From assembly GCA_963826115.1 (NCBI GenBank), contig CAWGVS010000003.1:64001-128000 (forward strand): a DNA stretch of 64,000 nt, read 5' to 3'. A program made the translations under genes and the position numbers. This DNA is from an uncultured Candidatus Rokubacteria bacterium. Its GTDB lineage: Bacteria > Methylomirabilota > Methylomirabilia > Rokubacteriales > DASRDR01. The stretch's first letter is position 1. Each line of letters starts with the position of its first letter. Under the pieces are notes generated by a model that saw only the letters and a list, made by a program, of their open reading frames with translations, ran no database searches and had not been told where the DNA came from. This document shows, in pieces, positions 15,956 to 33,509 of the stretch.

Positions 15956-15984
15956 TTGACAGCGGGAACCCCCTTCCCTAGTAT
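15956..15984 (+). promoter_or_regulatory. Sigma70-type promoter of the C1 (fae) operon
   Basis: TTGACA (15956-15961), a 17-nt spacer, then TAGTAT (15979-15984). Confidence 0.75.
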
Positions 15985-16015
15985 TGGCGCCACTCGACCG
16001 TACTGGTGCCACTCG
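15985..16015. repeat. 12-bp direct repeat at the predicted transcription start (candidate operator)
   Basis: TGGCGCCACTCG (15985-15996) and TGGTGCCACTCG (16004-16015), period 19 nt. A further CACTCG lies at 16055-16060. Confidence 0.55.
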
Positions 16016-16222
16016 GCTTGGCTTCATGCCTCGAGGATCGCGTATCCCGTGATTCACTCGTTCGCTCGCTGGTTCCCCCTCGGTCCATCGCGTCCGCCCG
16101 GCGCGGGCGCGCGGCGCTTCGGAGTCGATCTCGAGGGAAGGGGGTGTAAGGGCAGTCGGCAAGCCGGACGGTCGTAGTCGGCATCGCACACACTGAGCAC
16201 GCTCCACTGACGGAGGGATCGT

Positions 16223-16723
16223 ATGGCTACGGACAACTTCATGGTGGGTGAGTCGCTGGTCGGCGACGGCAACGAGATCGCGCACATCGACCTGATCATC
16301 GGTTCGAAGAGCGGGCCCGCCGGGATCGCCTTCGTGCATCGGGTCGCCGACCAGACGGCGGGTCACAACGGGCTCCTCGCCGTGCTCGCGCCCAACGTGC
16401 CGGCCAAGCCGGACACGGTCATGTTCAACAAGGTCACGATCAAGGGCGCCGGCCAGGCCGTCCAGATGTTCGGGCCCGCCCAGGCCGCGGTGGCCAAGGC
16501 GGTCGTCGACAGCGTCGCCGACGGCACCATCCCGAAGGCGAGCGCCAACGACCTCTGCGTGATCGTCGGCGTGTTCATCCACTGGCAGGCGAAGGACAAC
16601 AAGAAGATCTACGACTTCAACTACCGGGCGACCAAGGAAGCGATCACGCGGGCGATGAAGCACCACCCGACCGTGGACGAAGTCCTCGCCCAGAAGGACA
16701 CCGCCAAGCACCCATTCGCGTAG
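16223..16723 (+). CDS. fae: Formaldehyde-activating enzyme
   Basis: VGESLVGDGNEIAHIDLIIGSKSG, KPDTVMFNKVTIKGAGQAVQMFGPAQAAVAKAVVDSVADG and GVFIHW are near-canonical Fae. RBS GGAGG present. Confidence 0.97.
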   Translation: MATDNFMVGESLVGDGNEIAHIDLIIGSKSGPAGIAFVHRVADQTAGHNGLLAVLAPNVPAKPDTVMFNKVTIKGAGQAVQMFGPAQAAVAKAVVDSVADGTIPKASANDLCVIVGVFIHWQAKDNKKIYDFNYRATKEAITRAMKHHPTVDEVLAQKDTAKHPFA

Positions 16724-16749
16724 GCGCGGCGAGTCGCCGCCGCGCGGTC

Positions 16750-16781: not shown

Positions 16782-16815
16782 GGCCCCGCCCTCGCCACGG
16801 CACGCCTGACACGCC

Positions 16816-17715
16816 ATGCTGCGCATCAACGGGGTCGAGATCGAGGACACCTTCGCCGAGGCCTTCAAGATGCGCGCGGCCCGCGCGATCGTGACAGCCG
16901 AAACCGCCGCCTGGGCGCACACCGCAGCGGCGCTCGCGACCGGGTACGCCACCTCCGTCATCGGCTGCGACGCCGAGGCCGGCCTCGAGTCCGAGGTGCC
17001 CCCGCACGAGACGCCGGACGGCCGGCCCGGCGTGAGCCTCCTGGTCTTCGGGTTCAACACCGCCGCGCTCGGGAAGGCGCTGGTGAACCGCGTCGGGCAG
17101 TGCGTGATGACATGTCCCACGACCGCCTGCTTCAACGGGCTCCACCCCGGCGAGGAGACCGTGAAGGTCGGCGCGCTCCTCCGCTTCTTCGGTGACGGGC
17201 ACCAGGCGAGCAAGAAGCTCGACGGCCGCCGCTACTGGCGGGTGCCGGTGATGGACGGCGAGTTCCTCTGCGAGGACACGTTCGGCGTCCAGCGCGCCGT
17301 CGCGGGCGGCAACTTCCTGATCCTCGCCACCGATCAGGCCGCCGGGCTCGCCGCGGCCGAGGCCGCCGTTCGGACCATCCGCGCCGTGCCGGGCGTGATC
17401 CTCCCCTTCCCCGGCGGGATCGTCCGGAGCGGGAGCAAGGTTGGCTCGCGTTACAAGGCGCTGAAGGCGTCGACGAACGACGAGTACTGCCCCACCCTCC
17501 GCGGACTGGGCGCGAGCCGTCTCCCCGCCGAGGTCCACGCCGTCTACGAGATCGTCATCGACGGTCTCGACGTCGGGGCGGTCGAGGCCGCCATGCGCGC
17601 CGGCGTCCGGGCCGCATGCCAACCCGGGGTCGTGCAGATCACCGCCGGCAACTACGGGGGCAAGCTCGGCCAGTACCCGCTCCACCTCCACCGGATCCTC
17701 GAATCCGGGTCATGA
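16816..17715 (+). CDS. fhcD: Formylmethanofuran--tetrahydromethanopterin N-formyltransferase (Ftr/FhcD)
   Basis: INGVEIEDTFAEAF, ATSVIGCDAEAG, ETPDGRPG, RVGQCVMTCPTTACF, PFPGGIVRSGSKVGS and TAGNYGGKLG. Confidence 0.96.
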   Translation: MLRINGVEIEDTFAEAFKMRAARAIVTAETAAWAHTAAALATGYATSVIGCDAEAGLESEVPPHETPDGRPGVSLLVFGFNTAALGKALVNRVGQCVMTCPTTACFNGLHPGEETVKVGALLRFFGDGHQASKKLDGRRYWRVPVMDGEFLCEDTFGVQRAVAGGNFLILATDQAAGLAAAEAAVRTIRAVPGVILPFPGGIVRSGSKVGSRYKALKASTNDEYCPTLRGLGASRLPAEVHAVYEIVIDGLDVGAVEAAMRAGVRAACQPGVVQITAGNYGGKLGQYPLHLHRILESGS

Positions 17716-18284
17716 TCGTCGAGACGGTGGTGACGACGCTGGACGAGGACGGCCAGGTGAACTTCGCCGCGATGGGCGTCGTGTGGGGCGAGGAGCGTCT
17801 CGTGATCCGGCCCTACGTCGCGACCCGCACGTTCCGGAACCTCGTTCGCACGCGCGAGGCCGTCGTCAACGTCACCGACGACGTGCTGGTCTTCGCGAAG
17901 AGCGCTCTCGCGCGGGAGCGCTTCCCGAGCCGCCCCGCGACGCGGGTCCGCGGCGCGATCCTGGCGGACGCCTGCCACTGGCGCGAGGTCGCCGTCGAGC
18001 GCGTGTCGGCGCCCGATCCCCCGCCGCCGGCGGGCGGCCGGGCCGACGTGGAGACCCGCGTCGTGGCCGGCGCGGTCGGCCGGCCGTTCGCCGGCCTCTG
18101 TCGCGCCAAGCACGCGGTGGTGGAGGCGAGCATTCTCGCCTCGCGGGCGCGGCGCCTCCCGCGGGACGAGGTGCTCAGGGGCCTCGCCCGGCTCGATCCC
18201 CTGGTCGACAAGACCGGCGGGCCGGCGGAGCGCGAGGCCATGGCATACATCCGCGACCACGTCCGCCGCCTCGTGAGCGGCTGA
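17712..18284 (+). CDS. DUF447 family protein (FMN-binding split-barrel-like, H4MPT-cluster associated)
   Basis: MIVETVVTT...NFAAMGV...RPY...TFRNL...VNVTDDVLVFA...CRAKHAVVEASILASR...VDKTGG. ATGA coupling to fhcD. Confidence 0.85.
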   Translation: MIVETVVTTLDEDGQVNFAAMGVVWGEERLVIRPYVATRTFRNLVRTREAVVNVTDDVLVFAKSALARERFPSRPATRVRGAILADACHWREVAVERVSAPDPPPPAGGRADVETRVVAGAVGRPFAGLCRAKHAVVEASILASRARRLPRDEVLRGLARLDPLVDKTGGPAEREAMAYIRDHVRRLVSG

Positions 18285-18299
18285 CGGCGCCGACCCGGC

Positions 18300-19270
18300 A
18301 TGCGCACGATCGTCGAGGCGGGGGCGCGGCTCCACCTGGGGTTCCTGGACCTCCACGGCGGGTGCGGGCGGCGCTACGGGTCGATCGGCGTCACCCTCGA
18401 GCGCCCGCGCTGCACCGTGGCCGCCGGTCGCGCGCGCCCGGGCGATGCGCCGACGGCGAGCCCCGCGCTCGAGATCCTCGAAGGTCTCGCGCCCGGGCTC
18501 GACCCGAGGGCGATCACGGTCGAGCTCCTCGAGGCGATCCCCGCGCACGCGGGATTCGGCGCGGGCACCCAGCTCGCCCTCGCCGTCGCGCTGGCCGGCG
18601 CGCGCGCCGCCGGCCGCTCGATCGGCATCCGGGAGCTGGCCGCCCGGCTCGGTCGGGGGCAGCGCTCGGGCATCGGCGTCGCAGCCTTCGAGCGGGGTGG
18701 GCTCGTGATCGACGCGGGCCACGCGACGGGCGAGGATGACGGCGCGACCGCGTCACGCGCGCCGGAGCCCCCGCCGGTCGTCTTCCAGCACCCCCTGCCC
18801 GATGCCTGGCAGTTCGTGCTGGCCACGCCGCGCGCCGCTCCCGGTCTCTCCGGCGCGACGGAGCAGCGCGCGTTCGGGGATCTGCCGCCGATGGACGCCG
18901 GACGCGTCGGGCGGATCTGCCGACTCACGCTGATGCAGGTCATGCCGGCGGCGCTGACCAGCGACATCCGAACGTTCGGCGCCGCGATCACCGAGATCCA
19001 GACAGACGGTCGGCGACTACTTCGCGCCGTGGCAGGGCGGTCGGTTCGCGACCGAGACCGGCTGCCGGTGACCGAGCTCGCCCTCGCGCAAGGCGCTCAC
19101 GGCGTGGGCCAGAGCTCCTGGGGTCCGACGGTGTTCGCGCTGGTCCAGGGCGAGGCCGACGCCGAGGCGATGGCCGGCGCGATCGTGGGAGACGCTTCGG
19201 CGAGCGCCTCGCGTGGGTCGGCGTCAGTCCGGCGCGGAACCGGGGCGCGTCGTGCCGAGAGGCACCGTGA
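18300..19270 (+). CDS. mptG: beta-ribofuranosylaminobenzene 5'-phosphate (RFA-P) synthase, GHMP family; frame-disrupted near the C-terminus
   Basis: ARLHLGFLDL, IPAHAGFGAGTQLALA, GRGQRSGIG...FERGGLVIDAG and GQSSWGPT. The family-like VGDYFAPWQGG and C-terminal ARNRGA lie in shifted frames, and the true stop is probably 19268-19270. Confidence 0.88.
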
Positions 19271-20262
19271 GCGCGAGCGATCGACCTGAACCGCCGCGCC
19301 ATCCGCTCGCCGACGCCCTCGCGGACGACGCCGCGCTCGTCGGCGTCCGGGTCACCGAGGTCGGTGGTGCCCGGCTGATCGACTGCGGCGTGGGCGTGGC
19401 GGGCGGGCTCGAGGCCGGGCGGCGCCTCGCGGAGATCTGTCTCGCCGGCCTCGGCACGGTGTCGCTCACCAGCGTGGACGTCGGAGGCCTCTGGCTCGCC
19501 GCGGTGGCGGTGACCACCGATCACCCGGTGACCGCGTGCCTCGCGAGCCAGTACGCCGGGTGGGCCATCGACCCCCCGGGGTACTTCGCCATGGGCTCGG
19601 GTCCCGCCCGCAGCGTGGCCCGGGTGGAGCGGGAGCTCTACCAGCGGATCGGCTATGCGGAGTCGGGAGACTCGGCCGTGCTCGTGCTGGAGGGTCGCGC
19701 CCTGCCGGACGAGGCGGTCGTGCGGTTCGTGGCCGACAAGTGTCGCGTCCGGCCGGAGGGTCTGAGCCTCCTGATCGCCCCCACCGCCAGCATCGCCGGC
19801 TGCGTCCAGGTGGCCGCGCGCTCCGTGGAGACGGGGCTCCACAAGATGCTCGAGCTCGGGTTCGACGTGCGCGCCGTGCGGAGCGGCGCCGGCGTGTGCC
19901 CGCTCGCCCCGGTGGCGAAGAACGACCTCCGCGGCATCGGCTGGACGAACGACTGCATCCTCTACGGCACGCGCGCCTACTTCGCCGTCCACGCCGACGA
20001 TGCCGAGGTCGCGGCGATGGTCGAGCGGCTCCCCGCCTCCTCGTCGGCGGACTACGGCACGCCCTTCTACGACATCTTCAAGCGGGCCGGGAACGACTTC
20101 TACAAGATCGACAAGATGCTGTTCAGCCCCGCCGAGGTCGTCGTGAACAACCTCGCCTCGGGGCGCGTCCTCCGGGCCGGACGGCTCGCCCCCGAGATCC
20201 TCCGCAGGTCGCTCGGGCTGGACGAGTCCGCGCCGGGCGCCGGTCCCGGGAGCCGGTCGTGA
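19267..20262 (+). CDS. mch: Methenyltetrahydromethanopterin cyclohydrolase
   Basis: ACLASQYAGW, MGSGPAR, APTASIAGCVQVAARSVETGLHK, TNDCILYG and DFYKIDKMLFSPA. Confidence 0.96.
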   Translation: MSASDRPEPPRHPLADALADDAALVGVRVTEVGGARLIDCGVGVAGGLEAGRRLAEICLAGLGTVSLTSVDVGGLWLAAVAVTTDHPVTACLASQYAGWAIDPPGYFAMGSGPARSVARVERELYQRIGYAESGDSAVLVLEGRALPDEAVVRFVADKCRVRPEGLSLLIAPTASIAGCVQVAARSVETGLHKMLELGFDVRAVRSGAGVCPLAPVAKNDLRGIGWTNDCILYGTRAYFAVHADDAEVAAMVERLPASSSADYGTPFYDIFKRAGNDFYKIDKMLFSPAEVVVNNLASGRVLRAGRLAPEILRRSLGLDESAPGAGPGSRS

Positions 20263-21167
20263 AGGTCGTCATCCTGGGCTCCCGGTCCGGCTGGCACGAG
20301 GCCCGTCTCGGGCACGCGCTCCGGGAACGCGGCGCGGAGCCCATGGTGGCGCCGGTCACCGCGCTCGCGACCGCCGTGGCGGCCCCGGGCGAGGGACCGC
20401 GGCTCGCCGCCGGCGGCGTGCCGCTCGACGACTGCGGCGCGGTGATCGTGCGCGCGATCCCCGCCGGCTCGCTCGAGCAGGTGATCTTCCGGGTGGACGC
20501 CCTCCACCGCATGGCCCGACTCGGCGTCGCAGTCATCAACTCCCCGCGGTGTGTGGAGCGCACGGTGGACAAGTACTTCACCTCGACGATCCTCGAGGAC
20601 GCGGGCCTCCCGACGCCCCGGACCCGCGTGTGCGAGCGGGTCGACGACGCGCTCGCCGCCTACGAGGCCCTGGGCCGGGACGTCGTGATCAAGCCCCTCT
20701 TCGGCTCGGAGGGTCGCGGGATCGTGCGGGTGTCCGATCCCGACCTCGCGTACCGCACCTGCCGGGCCCTCGAGCTCACGCGGTCGGTATTCTATCTGCA
20801 GGAGTTCGTGCCCCACGGGGAGCGCGACATCCGAGCGTTCGTCGTCGGCGGCCGTCTGGTGGCGGCCATGACTCGCCGGGGCGCGGGGTGGAAGACGAAC
20901 GTCTCGCAGGGCGCGCGCGCGGAGCGGGTCGCCCTGTCCCCGGCGCTCGAGCGCCTGAGTCTCGAGGCCGCGGGGCGGCTCGAGGCCGACTACGCGGGGG
21001 TGGACCTTCTGTGCGCGGACGACGGGCGGACCTTCGTGATCGAGGTCAACGGGATACCGGGATGGCGCGGGCTCCAGCAGACGACCGACGTCGACGTCGC
21101 CGGCGCGATCGCCGACCACGCCATCGCGGTCGCCGGGCGCGGGCTCCCCGTCCCGGCCGCGCCATGA
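20259..21167 (+). CDS. RimK-family ATP-grasp glutamate ligase (Orf5-like of H4MPT clusters)
   Basis: GSLEQVIFRVDALH, ERTVDKY, KPLFGSEGRG, FYLQEF, WKTNVSQG and EVNGIPGWRGLQ. Follows mch as in methylotroph clusters. Confidence 0.92.
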   Translation: MKVVILGSRSGWHEARLGHALRERGAEPMVAPVTALATAVAAPGEGPRLAAGGVPLDDCGAVIVRAIPAGSLEQVIFRVDALHRMARLGVAVINSPRCVERTVDKYFTSTILEDAGLPTPRTRVCERVDDALAAYEALGRDVVIKPLFGSEGRGIVRVSDPDLAYRTCRALELTRSVFYLQEFVPHGERDIRAFVVGGRLVAAMTRRGAGWKTNVSQGARAERVALSPALERLSLEAAGRLEADYAGVDLLCADDGRTFVIEVNGIPGWRGLQQTTDVDVAGAIADHAIAVAGRGLPVPAAP

Positions 21168-22048
21168 GCGCGGCGGCGGTCCTCGCGGACCGGCCCTCGC
21201 CGGCGCGCATCGCGGCGGCCGCGACCCTGGCCTGCACGCTCGAGGCCTGCGCGGAGAAGGTGGGCAACGTCACGCCCACCCGCGCCTTCGCCGACGCGCG
21301 CTTCGACGACTTCGCGCTGAGCGCGCAGGCGCTCGGGTCCGCGGTCGCCGGCGCCGCGCCGGGCCGGGTGGGCCGCGCGATCTACGACGCGGTCGCCGCG
21401 ACCGGCCGCGTCGCGCCGTCCAACACCAACCTCGGCATGGCCCTCCTGTTCGCGCCGCTCGCGGCCGCCGCCCGCGGGCGCTCGAGGACGGCGCTCCGGC
21501 GTCGCCTGGTGCCGGTGCTGCGAGGGCTGAGCGTCGACGACGCGCGCTGGGCCTACCGGGCGATCCGCCTCGCGCGCCCGGGCGGGCTCGGGGAGAGCCC
21601 GGACGCGCCGGTCGCCCGCCCGCCCCGCATCACACTCGGCGAGGCCATGCGGCTGGCCGCGCGGCGGGACACCGTGGCGGCGGAGTACGGTCGGGGCTTC
21701 GCGGTGACGTTCGACCTCGCCCTCGCGCGGCTCCGCCGGGCGCTCCGCCGCGGCCTCCCGCTGCTCGACGCGATCGCGCAGGCCCACCTCGAGCTGATGG
21801 CCCGCGTGCCGGACACCCTGATCGCGCGCAAGGCCGGCGCCGCCGCCGCCGCGCGAGTGGCCGCGCGCGCCGACGCGGTGGTGCGGGCCGGGGGGATCGC
21901 GACGCGGCGCGGGCTCGCCGCCGCGCGGCGGCTCGACCGAGACCTCCGGCGGCACGGGAACCGCCTGAACCCCGGCACGTCGGCGGACCTCGTCGCTGCC
22001 GCCCTGTTCGTGTGGCTCCTGGAAGCGCCGGGACGAGGGCGCGCATGA
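21164..22048 (+). CDS. CitG-like triphosphoribosyl-dephospho-CoA synthase family protein (Orf7-like)
   Basis: EACAEKVGNV, NTNLGMALLFAPL, PDTLIARKAG and LNPGTSADLVAAALF. Confidence 0.9.
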   Translation: MSAAAVLADRPSPARIAAAATLACTLEACAEKVGNVTPTRAFADARFDDFALSAQALGSAVAGAAPGRVGRAIYDAVAATGRVAPSNTNLGMALLFAPLAAAARGRSRTALRRRLVPVLRGLSVDDARWAYRAIRLARPGGLGESPDAPVARPPRITLGEAMRLAARRDTVAAEYGRGFAVTFDLALARLRRALRRGLPLLDAIAQAHLELMARVPDTLIARKAGAAAAARVAARADAVVRAGGIATRRGLAAARRLDRDLRRHGNRLNPGTSADLVAAALFVWLLEAPGRGRA

Positions 22049-22569
22049 GCCGGCCGCCGAGCCCCTTCCGCGTCCGCATCGAGAAGGACTACACCGTCTT
22101 CTGCGCCGGCCACTTCATCACGTACGACGGGCACGAGTGCGAGCCGCTCCACGGCCACAACTACCGGGCGGCGGCCGCGCTGGAGGGCCCGCTGGACGAG
22201 AACGCCTACGTCTTCGACTTCAGCAAGCTCAAGCGCGCGCTCCGCGCCATCGTCGACCGCCTCGACCACCGGATGCTCCTGCCGACCAAGAGCGCGCTCA
22301 TCCGGGTTACGCAGTCGGGCGCCGAGGTGGAGGCGGCCTACCGGGAGAAGCGGTACGTCTTCCCGGCGAGCGACGTGGTGCTCCTCCCGATCCCCAACAC
22401 CACCGCCGAGATGCTGGCCTGGTGGATCGCGCAGGAGCTTCGCCGAAGTCTGGGCGCGCTCTCGCCCGGGATGACGGCCCTCGAGGTCGAGGTCGACGAG
22501 TCGTCCGGCCAGCGGGCCTTCTACCGGGAGCCGCTCGATTCCCCGGGCGGCGGAGCCGGGCCGGCGTGA
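22045..22569 (+). CDS. 6-pyruvoyltetrahydropterin synthase family protein with dual PTPS-I/III motif
   Basis: FCAGHF...CEPLHGHNY...DF...LDHRMLLP...NTTAEMLA...EVDES. Confidence 0.9.
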   Translation: MSRPPSPFRVRIEKDYTVFCAGHFITYDGHECEPLHGHNYRAAAALEGPLDENAYVFDFSKLKRALRAIVDRLDHRMLLPTKSALIRVTQSGAEVEAAYREKRYVFPASDVVLLPIPNTTAEMLAWWIAQELRRSLGALSPGMTALEVEVDESSGQRAFYREPLDSPGGGAGPA

Positions 22570-25869: not shown

Positions 25870-26523
25870 ATGCGCCGGGCTCGCGCGACGCCCGACTGGG
25901 TGATCAAGGTCGGCGGGAGTCTGGGCGCGCGACCCGCCCCGCTCCGTCGCCTGATGGCCACCCTGGCGCGCGCCGGGCGGCACCGCTGGCTCGTCGTCGT
26001 CCCCGGCGGCGGTAGCTTCGCCGACGAGGTGCGCCGGGCCGACCGCCGCTACGACCTCGGCGACTCGGCCGCCCACTGGATGGCCATCCTGGCGATGGAC
26101 CAGTACGGCCATCTTCTCGCGCGGCTCGCGCCCGGGGCACGCGTCGCGGCGAGCCGGCGCGAGCTCGCCCCGGGCCGGCTCAACGTGCTGCTCCCGTCAG
26201 CCTGGCTCCGGCGCGCCGACCCCCTGCCCCATTCCTGGGACGTCACGTCGGACTCGATCGCCGCGTGGGTGGCCCGCGAGCTCGGCGTCCGGCGCCTCAT
26301 GCTGGTGAAGCACCGTGACGGTTTCGTCGCGCCCGCCCGCGGGCCGCGGAGGGTGCCGCCGCGCGAGCGGCGATCCTCCCTCGCCGCGCTCGCGGGCGCG
26401 GTCGACCCCTATTTCGCGCGCGCCGTCGATCCGGCCACTGGCTGCTGGCTCGTCCAGGGACACCGGCCCGGCGCGATCGCGCGTCTCATCGACGCGGACG
26501 GGCCGCGCGGATCGCGCGCCTAG
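25870..26523 (+). CDS. Amino-acid-kinase-family protein (Orf21/MfnE-like)
   Basis: VIKVGGSL, VVPGGGSFADEVR, AHWMAILAMDQ and LPHSWDVTSDSIAAW. Confidence 0.9.
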   Translation: MRRARATPDWVIKVGGSLGARPAPLRRLMATLARAGRHRWLVVVPGGGSFADEVRRADRRYDLGDSAAHWMAILAMDQYGHLLARLAPGARVAASRRELAPGRLNVLLPSAWLRRADPLPHSWDVTSDSIAAWVARELGVRRLMLVKHRDGFVAPARGPRRVPPRERRSSLAALAGAVDPYFARAVDPATGCWLVQGHRPGAIARLIDADGPRGSRA

Positions 26524-26555: not shown

Positions 26556-27275
26556 TCAGGCCGACTGCCCGACGGTCGGCCGGGGGCCGCGTGCGCGGAC
26601 GAGGGCGCGCACCCGCTCGGCGTCGACCCGGCCCCCGACACGGTCGCCGATGCAGGCGGCGCCGCGCACGCCCACGAGGTCGGGGCCGATCGGCGCGAGC
26701 CGCGCGAGGTCCTCGACCCGAAGGGAGCCGGCGAGCGCCGAGAAGAGGCCGCGCGCGCGGCAGTCCTCGACGAAGGCCGCGAGCTCGTCCTCGCCGAGCC
26801 AGTGGAAGAGCCCGCGGCCGTCCTTCACGGCGGTGTCGACCAGGCAGCCGTGGGCGCCCGCGGCGGCGGCGAGGGCCGGCAGGTCGCGGGGCCGGGGCGC
26901 TCCCGCGCGCGCGAAGTCGGCGAAGCCCGCCACCACGAGGTAGGCCTCGGGAGGCAGGCTCGCGCGCGCCGCGCGAAGAGCGGCCGCGGCCGCCGCCGGC
27001 GACGTCTCGCGGAGCCCGAGCTTCACGTAGATCGCGCCGCTCCGCGCCGCCGCCCCGGCCAGGGCCGCCGCCACCGCCGGCGTGAACGGCCCATCGCCGA
27101 GCGCGGCGCTCACCGGCAGGCTCGCGGGCGTGGCGTCCCGCACCGCGCGGACCGTGGCCGGCGCGGCCTCGCCGAGGGCTCCGAGCGCGGGATCCTTGAC
27201 GTCGATGATGTCGGCGCCGGCGTCCGCCGCGATCCGGGCTTCCGCGGCGTCCACGACGCTCACCAGGAGGCGCAT
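26556..27275 (-). CDS. mfnB: (5-formylfuran-3-yl)methyl phosphate synthase (DUF556, Orf22)
   Basis: MRLLVSV...EA...GADIIDVKDPALGALG, PVSAALGD, YVKLGL, LVDTAVKDG, LAGSL and PDLVGVRGAAC. Confidence 0.93.
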   Translation of the reverse strand: MRLLVSVVDAAEARIAADAGADIIDVKDPALGALGEAAPATVRAVRDATPASLPVSAALGDGPFTPAVAAALAGAAARSGAIYVKLGLRETSPAAAAAALRAARASLPPEAYLVVAGFADFARAGAPRPRDLPALAAAAGAHGCLVDTAVKDGRGLFHWLGEDELAAFVEDCRARGLFSALAGSLRVEDLARLAPIGPDLVGVRGAACIGDRVGGRVDAERVRALVRARGPRPTVGQSA

Positions 27276-27342: not shown

Positions 27343-28101
27343 GTGAGGCGTCTCGACGGTCAGGTGGCGGTGGTCACCGGGGCGAGCCGGGGCATCGGCC
27401 GCGCGATCGCGCTCGCGCTCGCGCGGGAAGGCGCGCGCGTCGTCGTCAACTACTCCCGGTCGCGTGAGCTCGCCGAGGCCGTGGTCGCCGAGATGGTTGC
27501 CGCCGGGGGCGAGGCCCTCGCCATCCGCGCGGACGTTTCGCGGTCGGACGACGTCGCCAATCTCCTGGGCTCGACGCTCGGCACGTGGGACCGGATCGAC
27601 ACGTGGGTCAACAACGCGGGCGCCGACATCCTGACGGGCGACGCGCGGACCTGGCCCCCCGAGCGCCGCTGGGACGCGGTGATGACCGTCGACCTCAAGG
27701 GCACCTGGCTGTGCTCGCGGGCGGCGGCGGACGCGATGCGCCGGGCCGGCGGCGGCGTCATCGTGAACCTCTCCTGGGACCACGTCACCCACGGGATGGG
27801 CAACCAGACGGCGGCCATCTACGCCGCCGCGAAGGGCGGCGTGGCGGCCATGAGCCGTTCCCTCGCGCGGGAGTACGCGCCCCTCGTGCGGGTCAACGTG
27901 GTCGCGCCCGGCTGGGTCCGGACCGAGTGGCTCGACGGCGCCGGCGCCGAGGTCCAGCAACACGTGAGGGACGCGACCCCGCTCGGCCGTCCCGGCACGC
28001 CCGACGACGTCGCCGGCGCGGTCGCGTTCCTCGCCTCCGCCGACGCGGCCTTCATCACCGGACAGACCCTGCTGGTGAACGGAGGCGTCGTGGCCAGCTG
28101 A
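27343..28101 (+). CDS. SDR family oxidoreductase (candidate pterin reductase)
   Basis: GTG after AGGAGG. TGASRGIG, VNNAG, YAAAKGG, VNVVAPG and FITGQTLLVNGG. Confidence 0.88.
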   Translation: MRRLDGQVAVVTGASRGIGRAIALALAREGARVVVNYSRSRELAEAVVAEMVAAGGEALAIRADVSRSDDVANLLGSTLGTWDRIDTWVNNAGADILTGDARTWPPERRWDAVMTVDLKGTWLCSRAAADAMRRAGGGVIVNLSWDHVTHGMGNQTAAIYAAAKGGVAAMSRSLAREYAPLVRVNVVAPGWVRTEWLDGAGAEVQQHVRDATPLGRPGTPDDVAGAVAFLASADAAFITGQTLLVNGGVVAS

Positions 28102-28189: not shown

Positions 28190-28570
28190 ATGGCTGAAGA
28201 GAAGAAGCTCCCGGTCCTTCCGGACGACGAGATCGAGCGGCGGCTCGCCCAGGAGCTGCCGGGCTGGTGGTACGAGGGCCGCTGGATCCGCCGGAAGTAC
28301 AACACGGACGGCTGGCTCACGACGCTCGCGATGGTCAACACGATCGGCTACGTCGCCGAGGCCGCCTGGCACCATCCGGACCTCGAGGTGACGTGGGGCA
28401 AGGTGTGGGTGAAGCTGCGCACCCACTCGAGCAACGGTGTCACGGAGCGGGACTTCGCGCTGGCCAAGCGCCTCGAGGACGCGGTCCTGTGGCGCCCGGG
28501 CTCGGGCTCCCACATGGAGGGCACGCCCAACAAGTGGGTGAAGGGCGGGAGCCCCGATAAGCCCGCCTGA
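28190..28570 (+). CDS. Pterin-4a-carbinolamine dehydratase
   Basis: AEAAWHHPDLEVTWGKVWVKLRTHSSNGVTERDFALAK (HHPD motif). RBS AGGAGG present. Confidence 0.92.
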   Translation: MAEEKKLPVLPDDEIERRLAQELPGWWYEGRWIRRKYNTDGWLTTLAMVNTIGYVAEAAWHHPDLEVTWGKVWVKLRTHSSNGVTERDFALAKRLEDAVLWRPGSGSHMEGTPNKWVKGGSPDKPA

Positions 28571-28592: not shown

Positions 28593-29975
28593 GTGCCCAA
28601 GACGCTCTTCGTCACCGGCAAGCTCGCCGAGCCGGCGCTCCGGGCGACGCTCGCCCGGATGGCGCCGGACTTCCCCTACGAGGTGGTGGTCCTGCGGATC
28701 ACCGTCGCCGCGCTCATGACGACCTCCTGGATCGCGAAGCACCTCACGGACGTCTCCGGCTCGGAGCGCATCGTCATCCCGGGTCTCTGCGAGGGCGACG
28801 TGCGGGCGATCGAGGACCGGTGGGGCGTGAGGGCCGAGAAGGGGCCCACCGACCTCCGGGACCTGCCGGAGCACTTCGGTCAGGCGGCGCTCCGGGAAGA
28901 ATACGGCGCCCACGACATCCGGATCTTCGCGGAGATCAACAACGTCCCGTACCTCCCCCGCGAGGAGGTGGTGCGGGCAGCGGAGTACTACCGGGCGAGC
29001 GGCGCCGACGTCGTCGACCTCGGCTGCTCCCTCGACCGGAAGTTCGACGACGTCGCCGAGGTCGTGGGCCTCCTGAAGGCCCGCGGGTTCACCCTCAGCA
29101 TCGACACCCTCGACCCCGGGGAGATCGCCGCCGCCGACCGGGCCGGCGTCGACTACGTGCTGAGCCTGAACGGCCGGAACCTCGACCTGGCCGACACGCT
29201 CCGGGCCACGCCGGTCCTCATCCCGGACTCGCCCGCCGAGCTCGACACCCTGGACCGGAGCATCGCCCGTCTCGAGGCGCTCGGGCATCCCTACATCGTG
29301 GATCCGGTGATCGAGCCGATCGGGTTCGGCTTCGCGGCGGCGCTCGACCGCTACGTGCAGGTCCGGGCGCGCCACCCCGCGGTCGAGATCCTGATGGGCA
29401 TCGGCAACATCACGGAGCTGACCGACGCCGACACCACCGGGATGAACGCGCTCCTGATCGGCTTCTGCCAGGAGCTCGGCGTCCGTCACGTGCTCACGAC
29501 CGAGGTCATCCCGTGGGCGCGCGGCTCGGTGCGGGAGATCGACGTGGCCCGCCGTCTGATGTACGCGGCCCGCCAGCGCGGCGTCCTCCCGAAGCACGTC
29601 GACGACCGGCTGCTCACGGTCAAGGACGCGCGACCGAAGTACTACGCGGAGGCGGAGCTCCGGGAGCTCCACCGCGCGATCACCGATCCGAACTTCCGCA
29701 TCGCGACGACGCGCGATGCGATCTGCGTGTTCAACAACCGCCTGTTCGTGACCGGCACGGACATCCAGGCGATCTTCGAGCAGCTCGACGTCCAGGACCC
29801 CGCCCACGCGTTCTACCTCGGCAAGGAGCTGATGAAGGCCCGCCTCGCGCTCCTCCTCGGCAAGACCTACGTGCAGGAGCAGCCGCTCCGCTGGGGCTAC
29901 CTGACGCCCCCGCGCGAGGACACGGCCCACCGCCGCGTGCGGATCGAGGGACGCCGGAAGCCGCGGGACCAGTAG
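28593..29975 (+). CDS. Dihydropteroate synthase-like protein (Orf20-like, with DUF4346-type C-terminus)
   Basis: LFVTGKLAE, VAALMT, KGPTDLRDLP, IFAEI, GADVVDLGC, DPVIEPIGFG, MGIGNITELTDADTTG and HAFYLGKEL. Confidence 0.9.
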   Translation: MPKTLFVTGKLAEPALRATLARMAPDFPYEVVVLRITVAALMTTSWIAKHLTDVSGSERIVIPGLCEGDVRAIEDRWGVRAEKGPTDLRDLPEHFGQAALREEYGAHDIRIFAEINNVPYLPREEVVRAAEYYRASGADVVDLGCSLDRKFDDVAEVVGLLKARGFTLSIDTLDPGEIAAADRAGVDYVLSLNGRNLDLADTLRATPVLIPDSPAELDTLDRSIARLEALGHPYIVDPVIEPIGFGFAAALDRYVQVRARHPAVEILMGIGNITELTDADTTGMNALLIGFCQELGVRHVLTTEVIPWARGSVREIDVARRLMYAARQRGVLPKHVDDRLLTVKDARPKYYAEAELRELHRAITDPNFRIATTRDAICVFNNRLFVTGTDIQAIFEQLDVQDPAHAFYLGKELMKARLALLLGKTYVQEQPLRWGYLTPPREDTAHRRVRIEGRRKPRDQ

Positions 29976-30048: not shown

Positions 30049-30300
30049 ATGGAGCGCACAGGTTCGTCGATCCCGAAGACCTCGGTCCGTCCCCCGCGCA
30101 GGGCGCTCGGCCTCGGCCTCGGCGCCGGGCTGCTGGCCCTCGCGGGCACCCTCGCGCTCGGCGGCTGCTACGTCGTGCCGGCCCACACGGCCTATGTCGC
30201 GCCGGCGCCCGTCTACGTGACGCCCGCCCCCGTGTACGTGGTGCCCGCGCCCAGGTACTACTACGGCGGGTACGGGTGGCGGGGCTACCGACGCTGGTGA
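30049..30300 (+). CDS. Small proline-rich lipoprotein
   Basis: LALGGC lipobox, YV(A/T/V)PAP repeats and a YYYGGYGWRGY tail. RBS GGAGGG present. Confidence 0.7.
   Translation: MERTGSSIPKTSVRPPRRALGLGLGAGLLALAGTLALGGCYVVPAHTAYVAPAPVYVTPAPVYVVPAPRYYYGGYGWRGYRRW
30193..30255 (+). repeat. Three imperfect 21-bp tandem coding repeats
   Basis: TATGTCGCGCCGGCGCCCGTC / TACGTGACGCCCGCCCCCGTG / TACGTGGTGCCCGCGCCCAGG. Confidence 0.7.
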
Positions 30301-30405
30301 GGAGCGTCCGACCGCGCCGATCGGTCCGCTGATCGCCGCCGCGCCTCCCGCGGCGCGTGGGGTAGGATTGTGGGACGCCGCAAGTCACCCCACCGGGAGG
30401 TGCGC

Positions 30406-31260
30406 GTGAAGAAGTTGCTCCTGCAGCTCGATCCCGACAAGCATCCCAGCGCGTTCGACCGCATCGTCGCCCACGACGCGGGCGCGGATGAGGTCCTGAG
30501 CTACGGCGGCGTGGCGCCGGCCGACGTCACGCCGCTCGTGCACGGCGCGATCTTCACGCGCGGACCCGGCGAGCTCCGCAACACCGCGATATGGGTCGGC
30601 GGCACGGACGTCGGCCAGGCCGAGGCGCTGTTCGCCGCGGTCCAGAAGGCGTTCTTCGGCCCGTTCCGGGTCAGCGTGATGATGGACGCCAACGGGTGCA
30701 ACACGACCGCCGCCGCCGCGGTGGCGCGGCTCGCCGGCGTGGTCACGCTCTCCGGCGCCCGGGCCGTCGTCCTGGGCGGAACCGGGCCGGTCGGGCTCCG
30801 GGCGGCGACGCTCCTGGCGCGCGAGGGCGCCGGCGTGACCCTCTGCTCGCGGTCCCACGAGCGGGCACGCGCCGCGTGCGAGCAGCTGAAGGCGCGCTTC
30901 GCGGTGGACGTGAGCCCGTGCGAGGCGTGGGACGAGGAGGGGGTGGCGCGCGCGCTCGAGGGCGCCGACGTCTGCCTGACCGCCGGCGCCGCCGGCATTC
31001 AATTCCTCCCGCGCTCCCTGTGGGCTCCGCACCCCGCGCTGAAGGCGCTCGCCGATGTGAACGCGGTCCCCCCGCTGGGCATCGGCGGCATCGAGGCGAC
31101 CGACAAGGGGGCCGAGCGAGACGGCAAGCGCGTGTTCGGCGCGCTCGGCATCGGCGGCCTCAAGATGAAGGTCCACCGCGCGTGCGTGGCGAAGCTCTTC
31201 GAGCGAAACGACACCGAGCTGGACCTCGAGGCCATCTACGCTGCCGCGCGCGCCAGCTGA
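30406..31260 (+). CDS. NAD(P)-dependent methylene-H4MPT dehydrogenase (MtdA/MtdB/MtdC family; appears MtdC-like)
   Basis: MKKLLLQLDPDKHPSAFD, HGAIFTRGP, FFGPFRVSVMMDANGCNTTAAAAV, GGTGPVG, DVNAVPPLGIGGI and GALGIGGLKMKVH. Confidence 0.93.
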   Translation: MKKLLLQLDPDKHPSAFDRIVAHDAGADEVLSYGGVAPADVTPLVHGAIFTRGPGELRNTAIWVGGTDVGQAEALFAAVQKAFFGPFRVSVMMDANGCNTTAAAAVARLAGVVTLSGARAVVLGGTGPVGLRAATLLAREGAGVTLCSRSHERARAACEQLKARFAVDVSPCEAWDEEGVARALEGADVCLTAGAAGIQFLPRSLWAPHPALKALADVNAVPPLGIGGIEATDKGAERDGKRVFGALGIGGLKMKVHRACVAKLFERNDTELDLEAIYAAARAS

Positions 31261-31296
31261 GGCACCCGCGGCGCGCTCGGGCCCCGCTCCCGACTG

Positions 31297-32391
31297 ATGC
31301 CGCGCGTCGTCGGCGTCGATCCCGGCACGCAGAGCGTGGACCTCTGCGGACTCGCGGACGGCCAGGTGTTCCTCGAAGCGTCGGTCCCGGCCGATGAGGG
31401 GGGCCGCGCCCCGGCGGCGCTGGTGGACCGGCTGGCCGCGGCGCTTCCCCTCGACCTGATCGTCGCGCCCTCCGGCTACGGGCTGCCGCTCGTCCCCGTC
31501 GCCCAGCTCGACCCGTCGCGCCTCGACCTCGCGCTCCTCGTGCGACCCGAGGACCGCGCGCAGCCGGAGCGTGTCGGCGGCCTCCGCGCCATGCTCGAGG
31601 GGATGCAGGCGCGCGGGCTGCCGGCGGTTCTCCTGCCCGGCGTGGTGCACCTCGACACCGTGCCGGCGCACCGCAAGGTGAACCGCGTCGACATGGGCAC
31701 CGCGGACAAGCTGTGCGTGGCCGCCCTCGGCATCTGGGACCAGAGCCGCCGCCTCGCGTGTTCGCCCGCCGAGACCGGATTCGTGCTGCTCGAGCTCGGT
31801 GGCTTCTTCACCGCCGCGCTCGCCGTCGAGGCGGGGTGCGTCGTCGACGGGATCGGCGGGAGCGCGGGAGGCCTCGGGTACCGCGCCCTCGGGACGCTCG
31901 ACGGCGAGGTCGCCTACGTCCTCGGACGGGTGCGGAAGTCGGCGCTCTTCACCGGCGGGGCCGCGTTCGTCGCCGGCGCGCCGGACCTCTCCCCCGAGGA
32001 GCTGGCGGCGCGCGCGACCCGGGATCCGCGTGCCCGGATGGCCTGGGACGCGCTGATCGAGGCCGCGGCCAAGCTCGTGGCGGCGCTGAGGGTCACCGCG
32101 CCCGGCGCGCGCGAGGTGCTGCTCTCGGGACGCGTGGGCCGCGTGCCGACCGTCGTCGAGGCGCTCGAGCGTCGGCTCGCCGGCGCGCTCCCCGTGCGCC
32201 CCCTCGACCGCTTCACCGACCGCGTGAAGGAAGCGGCCCAGGGCGCGGCGCTGCTCGCGGACGGCCTCGCCGGCGGCCAGCATCGGGAGATCGTCGAGGC
32301 ACTGCGCCTCCGCGCGAGCGGCGGCTCGGTGCTCGACCATCTCTACGTGGCGGGCGCGGACGAGGTGCGGCGCCGCTTCGGGCTGGCGTGA
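31297..32391 (+). CDS. DUF1464 family protein (ASKHA/butyrate-kinase-like)
   Basis: VGVDPGTQSVDLCGL, APSGYGLP, PGVVHLDTVPAHRKVNRVDMGTADK, GTLDGEVAY and KEAAQGAALLADGLAGG. Confidence 0.88.
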   Translation: MPRVVGVDPGTQSVDLCGLADGQVFLEASVPADEGGRAPAALVDRLAAALPLDLIVAPSGYGLPLVPVAQLDPSRLDLALLVRPEDRAQPERVGGLRAMLEGMQARGLPAVLLPGVVHLDTVPAHRKVNRVDMGTADKLCVAALGIWDQSRRLACSPAETGFVLLELGGFFTAALAVEAGCVVDGIGGSAGGLGYRALGTLDGEVAYVLGRVRKSALFTGGAAFVAGAPDLSPEELAARATRDPRARMAWDALIEAAAKLVAALRVTAPGAREVLLSGRVGRVPTVVEALERRLAGALPVRPLDRFTDRVKEAAQGAALLADGLAGGQHREIVEALRLRASGGSVLDHLYVAGADEVRRRFGLA

Positions 32392-33509
32392 GGGTCCTGA
32401 TCGCCGGACTCACGACCCGGGCCATGGCCGAATCCGCGGCGCGCGCCGGCGCCGAGATCGTCACCGTCGATTACTTCGGCGACCTGGACCAGCGACGCCT
32501 CTGCGAGACCCACCCCCTGCGCGACCACGGCTTCGGCTACTCGCCGTCGGCGATCCTCGAGGTCGCGCGCAGCCTCGCCTACGACGCCGTCGTCTACTGC
32601 GGAGGCCTGGAGAACCATCCCGACGTCGTCGCCGAGCTCGTCCGCGGCCGGGTGCTCCTCGGGAACGCGCCCGAGACGCTCCGCCGGGTGCGCGATCCGC
32701 GCGCGATCTTCGCCCGGCTGGCCGGCCGCGGCTTCGCGGTGCCCGCGACCCGCTTCCCGGACGATCCCCTGCCCGTGTCCGGCCGGTGGCTCCTGAAGCC
32801 GGCGCGCGGAGGCGGCGGCCAGGGCGTGCGCCCGTGGGGCGGCCGGCCCCCCGCGGCCACGGAGATCCTGCAGGAGGTCGTGGACGGCGTCAGCGGCTCG
32901 GCCTCGTTCGTGGCCGACGGGCGACGGAGCATCGTCCTCGGCTGGACCGAGCAGCTCCGTCCGCCGCGAAGCTTCCGGTACGGCGGCAACGTCATGCCGC
33001 TCGAGGCCCGCGAGGCCACGCACGTGGAGGTCCGGGCGATTGCCGACGCGCTCACGGAGGAATACGGGCTCCGCGGTCTGAACGGCGTCGACTTCGTCCT
33101 GCGCGACGACCGGCCGGTCGTGCTCGAGGTAAACCCGCGGTACTGCGCGTCGATGGAGCTGGTCGAGCGCGCCCTCGGGGTATCCGTGTTCGGCCTCCAC
33201 GTGGCCGCCTGCCGGGGTGATCTCCCCGCCCGGGTTGGCGAGGTCACCGGGGCGTGGGGCAAGGCGATCGTCTATGCGCGGCGAACGGTGGCGGCGCCGG
33301 ACACGACGGCCTGGCTCGACCGGGGCGTCCGCGACGTGCCGCACCCCGGCGAGGTCATCCGCGCGGGCCACCCGATCTGCACGGTGCTGGCCACGGCGCC
33401 GACGCCGGCGCTCTGCAAGGCCGCGCTCGCCGAGGACGCCGCCCTGATCGAGGCTGCCTGCTCGCCGATCGACGGCCCCGACGCGGTCGACGGCGCCGAG
33501 GAAGCGTAA
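32388..33509 (+). CDS. ATP-grasp domain protein (Orf1-like of H4MPT clusters)
   Basis: RAMAESAARAG, DYFGDLD, GGLENHP, LLGNAPE, WLLKPARGGGG, GLNGVDF, LEVNPRYCASME and DVPHPG...PICTV. Confidence 0.88.
   Translation: MRVLIAGLTTRAMAESAARAGAEIVTVDYFGDLDQRRLCETHPLRDHGFGYSPSAILEVARSLAYDAVVYCGGLENHPDVVAELVRGRVLLGNAPETLRRVRDPRAIFARLAGRGFAVPATRFPDDPLPVSGRWLLKPARGGGGQGVRPWGGRPPAATEILQEVVDGVSGSASFVADGRRSIVLGWTEQLRPPRSFRYGGNVMPLEAREATHVEVRAIADALTEEYGLRGLNGVDFVLRDDRPVVLEVNPRYCASMELVERALGVSVFGLHVAACRGDLPARVGEVTGAWGKAIVYARRTVAAPDTTAWLDRGVRDVPHPGEVIRAGHPICTVLATAPTPALCKAALAEDAALIEAACSPIDGPDAVDGAEEA

Follow-up and report, generated by a model that had tools for sequence, protein, structure and literature searches.

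An island for tetrahydromethanopterin- and methanofuran-linked formaldehyde oxidation in a Rokubacteriales genome, with the formylmethanofuran dehydrogenase genes encoded apart from it

Formaldehyde oxidation linked to tetrahydromethanopterin (H4MPT) is central to methylotrophy and to the debate on the shared history of methanogenesis and methylotrophy and, to our knowledge, has been experimentally dissected only in Proteobacteria and Archaea. Here we analyse a 64,000-nucleotide stretch of an uncultured Candidatus Rokubacteria bacterium (assembly GCA_963826115.1, contig CAWGVS010000003.1, positions 64,001 to 128,000; hereafter the window), where 20 genes at 16223-33509 probably form a working, largely operon-organized island for formaldehyde oxidation through H4MPT and methanofuran in a Rokubacteriales host. 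We judge this explanation as a whole, which includes nearly all carrier-synthesis genes within the island, a formylmethanofuran dehydrogenase (Fwd) set encoded elsewhere and a short-chain dehydrogenase/reductase (SDR) proposed to take the place of the missing dihydromethanopterin reductase. The island is a lineage variant of the known pathway, of the Methylomirabilota/Gemmatimonadota cluster type, that we have not found described in print for Rokubacteriales.

The 6.24 Mb assembly (12 contigs, 99% complete, 5.3% contaminated) derives from a Rokubacteriales member of the Methylomirabilota. Its closest proteins and loci carry the names Candidatus Rokubacteria, Rokuibacteriota or Methylomirabilota, with 79–94% identity between the MfnF-like protein and its nearest relatives so named, in line with the non-proteobacterial genome suspected in an earlier, sequence-only reading of this DNA. 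Because the G+C content of the window is 70–78% (about 73%), plain open reading frame (ORF) lists are crowded with false frames; genes were therefore called from third-codon-position G+C content together with Pfam and NCBIfam domain matches. Besides fae, ftr, mch and mtd, the block holds 15 genes assigned to cofactor synthesis or linked to the cluster, plus an unrelated gene for a small lipoprotein. Eighteen genes lie on the plus strand, the HisA/F-like gene and mfnB on the minus strand, and start and stop codons overlap by four bases at six junctions (ftr/DUF447, mch/RimK-like, RimK-like/CitG-like, CitG-like/PTPS, PTPS/FolK-MptA and DUF1464/ATP-grasp). The sequence-only reading had proposed an H4MPT/methanofuran one-carbon cluster of 20 genes at 15956..33509, and every family it named is present there, with E-values from about 1e-10 to 1e-135; it overlooked the DUF447 gene, one of the 20 genes is the lipoprotein gene, and the FolK and GTP cyclohydrolase that it listed are a single ORF. 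The features of the island are as follows.

15956..15984, plus strand: promoter-like site TTGACA-17-TAGTAT, about 240 nt before fae; 10/12 consensus positions match
16223..16723, plus strand: fae, formaldehyde-activating enzyme (Pfam Fae E=3e-71; TIGR03126 248.8 bits, cut-off 118)
16816..17715, plus strand: ftr (fhcD), formylmethanofuran:H4MPT formyltransferase (TIGR03119 446 bits, cut-off 292.6; Pfam FTR and FTR_C)
17712..18284, plus strand: DUF447 protein (Pfam DUF447_N and DUF447_C)
18300..19289, plus strand: beta-ribofuranosylaminobenzene 5'-phosphate (RFAP) synthase, MptG-like, GHMP kinase fold (TIGR00144 166 bits, cut-off 113.5; equivalog NF040726 188 bits, under its cut-off of 328)
19267..20262, plus strand: mch, methenyl-H4MPT cyclohydrolase (TIGR03120 387 bits, cut-off 228.8); start uncertain (19213, 19252 or 19267)
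20259..21167, plus strand: RimK-type alpha-L-glutamate ligase, MptN/MyfB-like (TIGR00768 195 bits, cut-off 143; NF040720 (MptN) 256 bits, under its cut-off of 350)
21164..22048, plus strand: CitG-like triphosphoribosyl-transferase homologue (Pfam CitG E=8e-67; far under the cut-offs of the NCBIfam CitG/MdcB equivalogs)
22045..22569, plus strand: 6-pyruvoyl-tetrahydropterin synthase homologue (PTPS), PTPS-III-like (Pfam PTPS E=1e-24; Cys-Glu preceding the HGH motif)
22566..24026, plus strand: fused FolK (HPPK) and MptA-type GTP cyclohydrolase, single ORF (TIGR01498 144 bits, cut-off 54; TIGR00294 279 bits, cut-off 220)
24023..24796, minus strand: HisA/HisF-like protein, of the Pfam family of Orf17 (Pfam His_biosynth E=3e-35)
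24844..25866, plus strand: MfnF-like hydantoinase-fold protein, 'probable H4MPT-linked C1 transfer pathway protein' (TIGR03123 353 bits, cut-off 244)
25870..26523, plus strand: MfnE-like kinase, amino-acid-kinase fold (Pfam AA_kinase)
26556..27275, minus strand: mfnB, (5-formylfuran-3-yl)methyl phosphate synthase (Pfam 4HFCP_synth E=2e-66)
27312-27284, minus strand: promoter-like site upstream of mfnB, from the same scan as the site at 15956
27343..28101, plus strand: classical SDR, FabG-like (Pfam adh_short_C2 E=8e-58)
28190..28570, plus strand: pterin-4a-carbinolamine dehydratase homologue (PCD; Pfam Pterin_4a E=7.5e-25; NF002017 87.8 bits, cut-off 80)
28593..29975, plus strand: dihydropteroate-synthase-like (DHPS-like) protein, MptH-like (Pfam DUF6513 and PterinBD-DUF4346; TIGR00284 194 bits, under its cut-off of 257)
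30049..30300, plus strand: small predicted lipoprotein, 83 aa, with PAPVYV-type repeats and a lipobox-like LALGGC, between the DHPS-like gene and mtd
30370..31260, plus strand: mtd, NAD(P)-type methylene-H4MPT dehydrogenase, MtdA/B family (Pfam Mpt_N E=9e-32, 109 bits, cut-off 27, then a Rossmann-type domain)
31297..32391, plus strand: DUF1464 protein, actin-fold, kinase-like (Pfam DUF1464 E=9e-85)
32388..33509, plus strand: ATP-grasp_3 ligase, MfnD/MyfA-like (Pfam ATP-grasp_3 E=5e-24)

Fae, Mtd, Mch and Ftr, which make up the module for H4MPT-linked oxidation of formaldehyde, are all encoded and score above cut-off. Going by family membership, Fae would bind formaldehyde to H4MPT, Mtd and Mch would oxidize the adduct to formyl-H4MPT and Ftr would pass the formyl group to the furan carrier, where formyl-furan would be handled by a separately encoded FwdD-B-A-C together with the sulfurtransferase FdhD. 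Another, more distant Fae-like ORF, at C10:22637-23140 and with 35% identity to the Fae of the cluster, is near neither the island nor the fwd operon (C, G and L numbers denote contigs, genomes and loci in our numbering).

As the sequence-only reading noted, ftr is not flanked by fhc or fwd genes: 92 nt separate it from fae, DUF447 follows directly, and nothing lies between the RFAP synthase gene and mch. The same reading saw no fhcABC, which holds for the window and fails for the genome. Whole-genome searches with curated models returned one above-cut-off match each for FwdA (TIGR03121, 679 bits), FwdC (TIGR03122, 261 bits) and FwdB (TIGR03129, 498 bits), side by side at C10:440685-444440 on a contig other than the island's. 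They belong to an operon fwdD-fwdB(TGA)-fwdA-fwdC-fdhD spanning C10:440056-445460, in which the last gene encodes the sulfurtransferase and the FwdD-like gene directly upstream of fwdB reaches 82 bits against NF042908 (FwdD; cut-off 175). A homologue of tungsten-type aldehyde:ferredoxin oxidoreductase is encoded just downstream of this operon on the opposite strand, and alpha, beta and gamma genes of an FDH-N-type formate dehydrogenase follow about 6 kb further on.

The single in-frame TGA of fwdB, in the context '...HTSL*HGP...', aligns with the X of 'SVXHGP' in the solved FwdB 9sfi_Q (deposited under 'molybdopterin oxidoreductase'), that is, with the catalytic selenocysteine (Sec)/Cys position. 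With the TGA read as Sec, the protein matches 9sfi_Q, 8rja_B, 5t5i_B, 9sw6_J and 7bkb_H at E=5e-112 to 1e-94; scores are 344–378 bits against the four named FwdB/FmdB chains and 9sfi_Q, and only 56 bits against 6s6y_B, which we take to be FhcB from the M. extorquens Fhc structure. FhcB is generally described as a non-redox relic without the catalytic Cys/Sec. The window genome's FwdB carries a CxxCxxxC (4Fe-4S) motif at its N terminus, and tRNA-Sec and SelB are both encoded in the genome; a small hairpin lies about 21 nt downstream of the UGA, its fold no better than that of shuffled sequences (z = 0.41). Since this FwdB is of the redox type, the formyl group would more likely end as CO2 than as formate, the product released by the proteobacterial Fhc hydrolase according to PMC8141765.

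Relatives indicate how Ftr came to stand alone. A genome of the same genus (L104) has the order fae-fwdD-fwdB-fwdA-ftr-DUF447-RFAP-fwdC-mch, and Methylomirabilis (L105) has fae-mtd-fwdD-fwdB-fwdA-ftr-fwdC-mch; both in-cluster FwdB proteins bear Cys at the catalytic position and are 47–64% identical to the FwdB of the window genome. Methylomirabilis has a second, TGA-type fwdB elsewhere (L106). Among close relatives, G121 and G124 carry the TGA type outside the cluster, G122 has both types and G127 the Cys type. Ftr thus stands alone because the in-cluster Cys-type fwdDBA and fwdC genes kept by relatives are missing here, which is most simply explained if two Fwd sets were once present in the lineage and the window genome kept only the Sec type. 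Retention of fwdD in NC10, and not in Proteobacteria, has been reported (Chistoserdova 2016, PMC5020050). In G122 the Sec-type fwdB matches as two pieces with overlapping coordinates (G122:C18:618138-619389), which suggests a frameshift or an assembly error; the same genome has an intact Cys-type fwdB near its cluster.

To place the island among its relatives, we compared the window proteins by tblastn with 63 loci fetched around MfnF-like homologues. In all four close Rokubacteria loci (L020-L023) gene order is identical within each locus's reach, including the FolK-MptA fusion, SDR, PCD, DUF1464 and both minus-strand genes. A Methylomirabilis locus (L024) and small-genome relatives (L025, L027) share this order without FolK-MptA at this place and with an extra ATP-grasp gene before mfnF. 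Gemmatimonadales loci (L030, L032, L034, L035) read ftr-mch-RimK-CitG-PTPS-HisAF(-)-MfnF-MfnE-MfnB(-)-SDR-PCD-DHPS, a Vicinamibacterales locus (L033, from a genome flagged unpublished) keeps that order from mch onward, and L030 and L032-L034 run on into DUF447. PTPS, SDR, PCD and the DHPS-like gene thus occur in the same order in Methylomirabilis, Gemmatimonadales and Acidobacteriota, whereas proteobacterial loci show another arrangement and only 35–45% identity (Fae about 61%). What the sequence-only reading regarded as an atypical gene set is the usual set of a large non-proteobacterial cluster group rather than this genome's invention. The PTPS, FolK-MptA fusion, SDR, PCD and DUF1464 that it singled out are real parts of the cluster; they were not recruited by this genome, because the order of PTPS, SDR, PCD and the DHPS-like gene is shared across these phyla, the fusion is widespread and DUF1464 has relatives in methanogens. 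The synteny comparison proposed in that reading therefore places the island in a lineage cluster type common to Rokubacteria, Methylomirabilis, Gemmatimonadales and Acidobacteriota.

A quick maximum-likelihood tree of the MfnF-like protein (63 rows; Shimodaira–Hasegawa-like approximate likelihood-ratio test (SH-aLRT) support) agrees with this placement. The window sequence groups with Rokubacteria (98), then with the Methylomirabilis group (93), and both fall within a clade of Gemmatimonadota, Acidobacteriota and Bacillota (99); a second, paralogous clade, apart from that of the window, holds Proteobacteria and further Gemmatimonadota copies. We also observed that, with the MfnF-like/TIGR03123 family divided into two deep clades, Gemmatimonadales genomes have one copy of each in a single extended H4MPT supercluster (loci L038-L078 versus L028-L035), one by HisAF/MfnE/MfnB and the other by ATP-grasp genes and fae-mtd-DUF1464.

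Within the phylum the pathway is patchy. Of 121 Methylomirabilota genomes sampled evenly, 24 have Mch and 23 have FwdB, comprising nearly all members of two small-genome families (including Methylomirabilis-like genomes) and two of the 73 genomes of a large sister family. The window's genus, represented by five other genomes, has Mch in four and FwdB in three, and none of three genomes from other genera of its family has either. This distribution fits a passage of Butterfield et al. 2016 (PMC5103831), which states that their Rokubacteria cannot oxidize formaldehyde by the H4MPT route; against those earlier proteogenomic Rokubacteria, a soil-abundant Rokubacteriales genus has the full pathway. 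The Rokubacteria genome papers that we term-searched mention neither methanopterin nor methanofuran, supplements not covered. The sequence-only reading had left room for the absent genes to sit elsewhere in the genome, as the fwd genes do on C10, and for the gene set to have been described already; our literature search, likewise without supplements, found no description of this gene set or island in Rokubacteriales.

To judge by their families and order, the pterin genes appear to equip the island with a dedicated path that leads from GTP to a diphosphate, which the DHPS-like enzyme would then join to beta-RFAP. Here the MptA-type cyclohydrolase, a PTPS-III-like enzyme and FolK would together supply 6-hydroxymethyl-dihydropterin diphosphate, RFAP synthase and the DHPS-like enzyme would join the pterin to the aminobenzene-ribose part, and the CitG-like and DUF447 proteins may act in later steps. 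The cyclohydrolase half of the fusion scores as MptA (279 bits, cut-off 220) and not as FolE2 (139 bits, cut-off 215), and of the 120 best protein clusters listed, at least 118 combine both Pfam domains of the fusion, one being named NC10. The window PTPS reads C-E-P-L-H-G-H, with its Glu aligned to the E of E-T-L-H-G-H in the best solved relatives (1y13_A, 2a0s_A and related entries), presumably Plasmodium enzymes. Pribat and colleagues reportedly showed in 2009 that a Glu before HGH marks PTPS-III, which makes 6-hydroxymethyl-dihydropterin and replaces FolB; by its sequence the window PTPS, with a Glu accompanying the catalytic Cys before HGH, would be of this kind, and its stop codon overlaps the start of FolK-MptA. 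As an unfused FolK on C2 and a QueD-like PTPS on C6 are encoded elsewhere in the genome, the cluster copies are extra. A scheme in which PTPS and the SDR build the C9-methyl side chain of methanopterin was considered and dropped as chemically unsupported.

For the furan carrier, the island encodes MfnB, MfnE-like, MfnF-like and HisA/F-like proteins, a RimK-like ligase and one ATP-grasp_3 ligase (single copy genome-wide by tblastn), which would build a methylofuran-type carrier with a glutamate chain. The broader family models 4HFCP_synth and TIGR03123 are reached, and the equivalog models are not (MfnB NF002575 200 bits, cut-off 304; MfnE NF040622 93, cut-off 300; MfnF NF040623 233, cut-off 520). 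According to passages of PMC8141765, the proteobacterial counterparts Orf22, Orf21 and Orf9 are MfnB, MfnE and MfnF, respectively; Orf17 of the HisA/F family is needed for methylofuran synthesis in M. extorquens, Orf5/MyfB (RimK-like) elongates the polyglutamate chain, and the ATP-grasp enzyme OrfY/MyfA is a relative of MfnD. The same passages report that the methylofuran core varies in Proteobacteria between tyrosine and tyramine and that, of the methylofuran makers lacking MfnA, three strains have a tyrosine and three a tyramine core, so the core type is not predictable here. The DUF1464 protein looks by sequence like another archaeal-shared family in the island: the protein clusters nearest to it by features are labelled DUF1464, 'butyrate kinase family' or 'methanogenesis marker 12', many of them come from methanogens, and its gene is linked to mtd in Gemmatimonadales loci.

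One step of methanopterin synthesis, the final reduction, has no recognizable enzyme. DmrA is a homologue of dihydrofolate reductase (a passage of PMC6193120), and the corresponding DHFR_1 model (PF00186) has no match in the 99%-complete genome; as no such FolA-type gene was found, dihydrofolate reduction must also use another enzyme. For the DmrB/AfpA/DmrX type, the best genome-wide match to the archaeoflavoprotein model TIGR02700 scores 30.5 bits (cut-off 251) and covers only model positions 145–194, the ferredoxin-like end. The absence of any Dmr, first noted for the window, therefore extends to the whole genome. RibD_C (PF01872) has three matches in the genome, of which one is RibD and the others are small proteins encoded far away from the cluster; small RibD_C-domain ORFs lie at C3:202325-202828 and C1:72421-72921.

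We surveyed AfpA and SDR orthologues in the 34 genomes behind the fetched loci, inspecting the neighbours of SDR matches. AfpA-type matches (80–106 bits, N-terminal) occur in ten genomes, eight Proteobacteria and two Bacillota. A triad of sdr, pcd and the DHPS-like gene is found in all 20 AfpA-less genomes of Methylomirabilota, Gemmatimonadota type and Acidobacteriota (Rokubacteria, Methylomirabilis, Gemmatimonadales type with one metagenome-assembled genome labelled 'delta proteobacterium', Vicinamibacterales and Acidobacteriota) and in none of the ten AfpA-bearing genomes. In these 20 the SDR shows 46–81% identity and lies directly before pcd and the DHPS-like gene; in 19 the triad sits among H4MPT genes, and in G134 the triad itself was all that was seen. 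No SDR match at E<=1e-45 was found in the eight AfpA-bearing Proteobacteria, nor in the ten proteobacterial genomes overall, and the 43–46% SDR matches in the two AfpA-bearing Bacillota stand alone, without pcd or the DHPS-like gene. In the other four genomes (two of Pirellulales, one alphaproteobacterial and one of Methylococcales) AfpA and any clear orthologue of the SDR are both lacking. The PCD lacks its classical partner, since the genome encodes no biopterin-dependent aromatic amino-acid hydroxylase, and it probably acts on a methanopterin-related pterin. The phyletic pattern suggests that the in-cluster SDR, possibly with the adjacent PCD, could replace DmrA/DmrB in reducing dihydromethanopterin to H4MPT. 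That the SDR is the dihydromethanopterin reductase is, judging by this pattern and by gene context, a tentative assignment to which we give a little less than even credence; it might alternatively take part in PCD-linked repair of oxidized H4MPT. More tentative still is the general proposal that sdr-pcd is a further non-homologous way of keeping methanopterin reduced, beside DmrA and the related flavoproteins DmrB/AfpA and DmrX, used by Methylomirabilota, Gemmatimonadota and Acidobacteriota: on this view the SDR would use NAD(P)H to reduce 7,8- and/or quinonoid dihydromethanopterin, and PCD would supply it with the 4a-hydroxy-H4MPT that arises by oxidation in aerobes. Our literature search found no paper joining dihydromethanopterin with a short-chain dehydrogenase.

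Several observations weigh against this role for the SDR. By sequence it is an ordinary FabG-like classical SDR (glycine motif TGASRGIG); its 60 best solved relatives comprise FabG, glucose dehydrogenases and enzymes of that sort, with no pteridine reductase among them, and the pteridine-reductase model NF006598 gives 160 bits (cut-off 288), ranking 21st among the 25 best of 221 matched SDR models. The complementarity with AfpA concerns related genomes and perhaps reflects one or two independent switches only, the AfpA-bearing Bacillota fall inside the SDR-bearing clade of the MfnF tree, and the Pirellulales with neither AfpA nor a clear SDR imply a further reductase, which could also serve here. 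It is a real possibility, just short of an even one, that the SDR has no pterin role and acts instead on a ribofuranosyl intermediate, a furan or a fatty-acyl substrate, leaving dihydromethanopterin to an unrecognized enzyme such as the DUF447 protein or one encoded elsewhere. The FabG-like character of the SDR and the Pirellulales speak for this, as do paralogous Rokubacteria SDRs that reach 44–48% identity, close to the 46–50% of the cross-phylum 'orthologues'. DUF447, which we take to have a flavin-binding-type fold, is present in every cluster type and adjoins the DHPS-like gene in proteobacterial loci as well; its solved relatives are all uncharacterized (best 3b5m, E=3e-26), and a literature search on it turned up only unrelated DUF447x families. 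However, DUF447 co-occurs with AfpA in proteobacterial loci and so shows no complementary gap-filling, whereas the SDR triad is confined to AfpA-less genomes, 20/20, and the Bacillota SDR matches stand alone. The pair is a concrete, testable candidate where bacteria lacking DmrA or AfpA have no known enzyme to complete methanopterin synthesis. If the sdr-pcd proposal is true, it would fill a reductase gap noted for bacteria without Afp or DmrA; the gain would be modest were the SDR to prove unrelated.

The sequence-only reading further inferred a chemically distinct pterin or furan carrier, the extra families (PTPS, FolK-MptA, SDR, PCD and DUF1464) having changed the chemistry away from H4MPT and methylofuran. 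We consider this unlikely, even with a gene set unlike the characterized proteobacterial one, no DmrA/DmrB, no MfnA above cut-off, a single ATP-grasp_3 gene, a methylofuran core already known to vary in Proteobacteria (tyrosine versus tyramine, in passages of PMC8141765), and MfnB, MfnE, MfnF, MptN and RFAP synthase all under their equivalog cut-offs. The enzymes that recognize the carriers, Fae, Mch, Ftr and FwdA/B/C, all exceed curated equivalog cut-offs, DUF1464 and MptA are common to methanogens, and no methyltransferase, glycosyltransferase or other tailoring gene appears among the Pfam matches of the block. Each extra family has a simpler standard-route role, in head-group supply or final reduction, and nothing seen requires a new carrier. 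The cyclohydrolase (MptA/FolE2-type), PTPS, SDR and PCD could instead be a separate tetrahydrobiopterin-like synthesis or recycling set lodged among H4MPT genes, since the classical biopterin set consists of GTP cyclohydrolase, PTPS, an SDR-type sepiapterin reductase and PCD, and each of these families occurs here. However, biopterin-dependent hydroxylases are missing from the genome, the PTPS has the Glu of the hydroxymethyl-pterin-forming type and overlaps FolK, and in the 20 genomes SDR and PCD are fixed directly upstream of the DHPS-like gene, mostly without an in-cluster cyclohydrolase, and we find this reading quite improbable. To a reductive direction, from CO2 to methylene-H4MPT for carbon fixation, we give next to no weight: the archaeal redox-type FwdB with Sec and 4Fe-4S motif and the nearby aldehyde:ferredoxin oxidoreductase homologue and formate dehydrogenase genes would suit it, but the operon is headed by Fae, serving formaldehyde capture, Mtd is the NAD(P)-type bacterial enzyme, and no mer or methyl-branch genes were seen in the window.

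The oxidative island with its separate Fwd set, which we favour, has points against it as well. Neither the best MfnA match in the genome (83 bits, cut-off 299) nor any candidate for MfnC supplies these furan-synthesis steps, and the genome-wide check for xoxF-type genes that the sequence-only reading had proposed alongside mfnA found no pyrroloquinoline quinone (PQQ) methanol dehydrogenase; no formaldehyde source was identified. No FwdF/G-type electron carrier (polyferredoxin) gene lies beside the fwd operon, and FwdB had no match in G123 or in G065 (98% complete), both of which have Mch or the cluster. The MptA-type product is a cyclic phosphate and the PTPS-III substrate a triphosphate, which leaves the hand-off from MptA to PTPS unproven. 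No public RNA run is listed as containing the region, and the best DNA run has 0.29 of the sampled words.

Two promoter-like sites were found in the region against 0.3 expected from shuffles; the first, whose -35 hexamer marks the left edge of the region at 15956, is kept in the relative L020. The leader of about 240 nt between that site and fae (15985-16222) contains blocks conserved in two relatives, for example GGAAGGGGGTG, as is the stretch preceding the ribosome-binding site (two aligned relatives being too few for a structure test); no Rfam family matches anywhere in the window at gathering thresholds, so the leader holds no known riboswitch. The lipoprotein encoded at 30049-30300 has no Pfam or NCBIfam match and a partial match in one of the 63 loci (L023), and probably lies outside the pathway. 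Directly upstream of the island, 14626-15939 (plus strand) encodes a secreted protein of about 430 aa with a signal-peptide-like N terminus and no Pfam family; ORF lists miss it, since one long open frame covers both this gene and the transporter gene before it. Genes for a FAA-hydrolase-family protein and a GntR-aminotransferase regulator lie downstream, and the remaining window encodes a histidine kinase, a porin, transporters, hydrolases and the like, with no one-carbon-source enzyme or regulator gene that ties to the island. At 1746-4653 (minus strand) a flavin amine-oxidase-family gene adjoins a MauG-like di-haem cytochrome c peroxidase gene, a pair that might yield aldehydes from amines; we saw nothing linking it to the island. 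ARAGORN calls a tRNA with anticodon CTA, labelled tRNA-Pyl, at C12:686301-686373, which may be a false call or a suppressor-like tRNA.

Taken with its relatives, the island belongs to a large non-proteobacterial cluster group in which Fae and the NAD(P)-type Mtd are bacterial and the formylmethanofuran dehydrogenase, with a predicted selenocysteine, is of archaeal type. With the 'archaeal-like' cluster of methylotrophic Proteobacteria such as Methylorubrum extorquens (fhcCDAB, with DmrA or AfpA/DmrB) it shares Fae, Mtd, Mch and Ftr and, from passages of the sources on that cluster, RFAP synthase, the DHPS-like, CitG-like, DUF447, MfnB/E/F-like, HisA/F-like, RimK-like and ATP-grasp genes. There, however, ftr (fhcD) is co-encoded with fhcA, B and C, whereas here Ftr lies outside any fhc operon, FwdB is of the redox type with Sec and accompanied by a FwdD-like gene, DmrA and AfpA are absent and PTPS, FolK-MptA, SDR and DUF1464 are added. 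Gemmatimonadetes soil methylotrophs are similar in having, as passages of Butterfield et al. 2016 (PMC5103831) describe, a complete H4MPT pathway and cofactor-synthesis genes in one neighbourhood, and Gemmatimonadales loci share the PTPS...SDR-PCD-DHPS order and the fae-mtd-DUF1464 linkage; their clusters differ in adjoining a xoxF methanol dehydrogenase, according to the same passages, and identities are 40–60%. Candidatus Methylomirabilis (NC10), of the same phylum, is closer, with a HisAF-MfnF-MfnE-MfnB-SDR-PCD-DHPS-DUF1464-ATP-grasp order at 58–83% identity (L024), fwdD retained (PMC5020050) and TGA-type FwdB (five complete copies and one partial among the listed genomes of its family) beside the Cys type, but it keeps fwdD-B-A-ftr-fwdC-mch in-cluster (L105) where the window has lost the fwd genes. 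The archaeal tungsten/molybdenum formylmethanofuran dehydrogenases (Fwd/Fmd; 5t5i and others) resemble the set encoded here in FwdB sequence, the Sec codon at the catalytic position, the N-terminal Cys motif and the presence of FwdA, FwdC and a FwdD-like gene; by contrast, here no FwdF/G gene is adjacent, FdhD is attached and the host is a bacterium with Fae and an NAD(P)-type Mtd.

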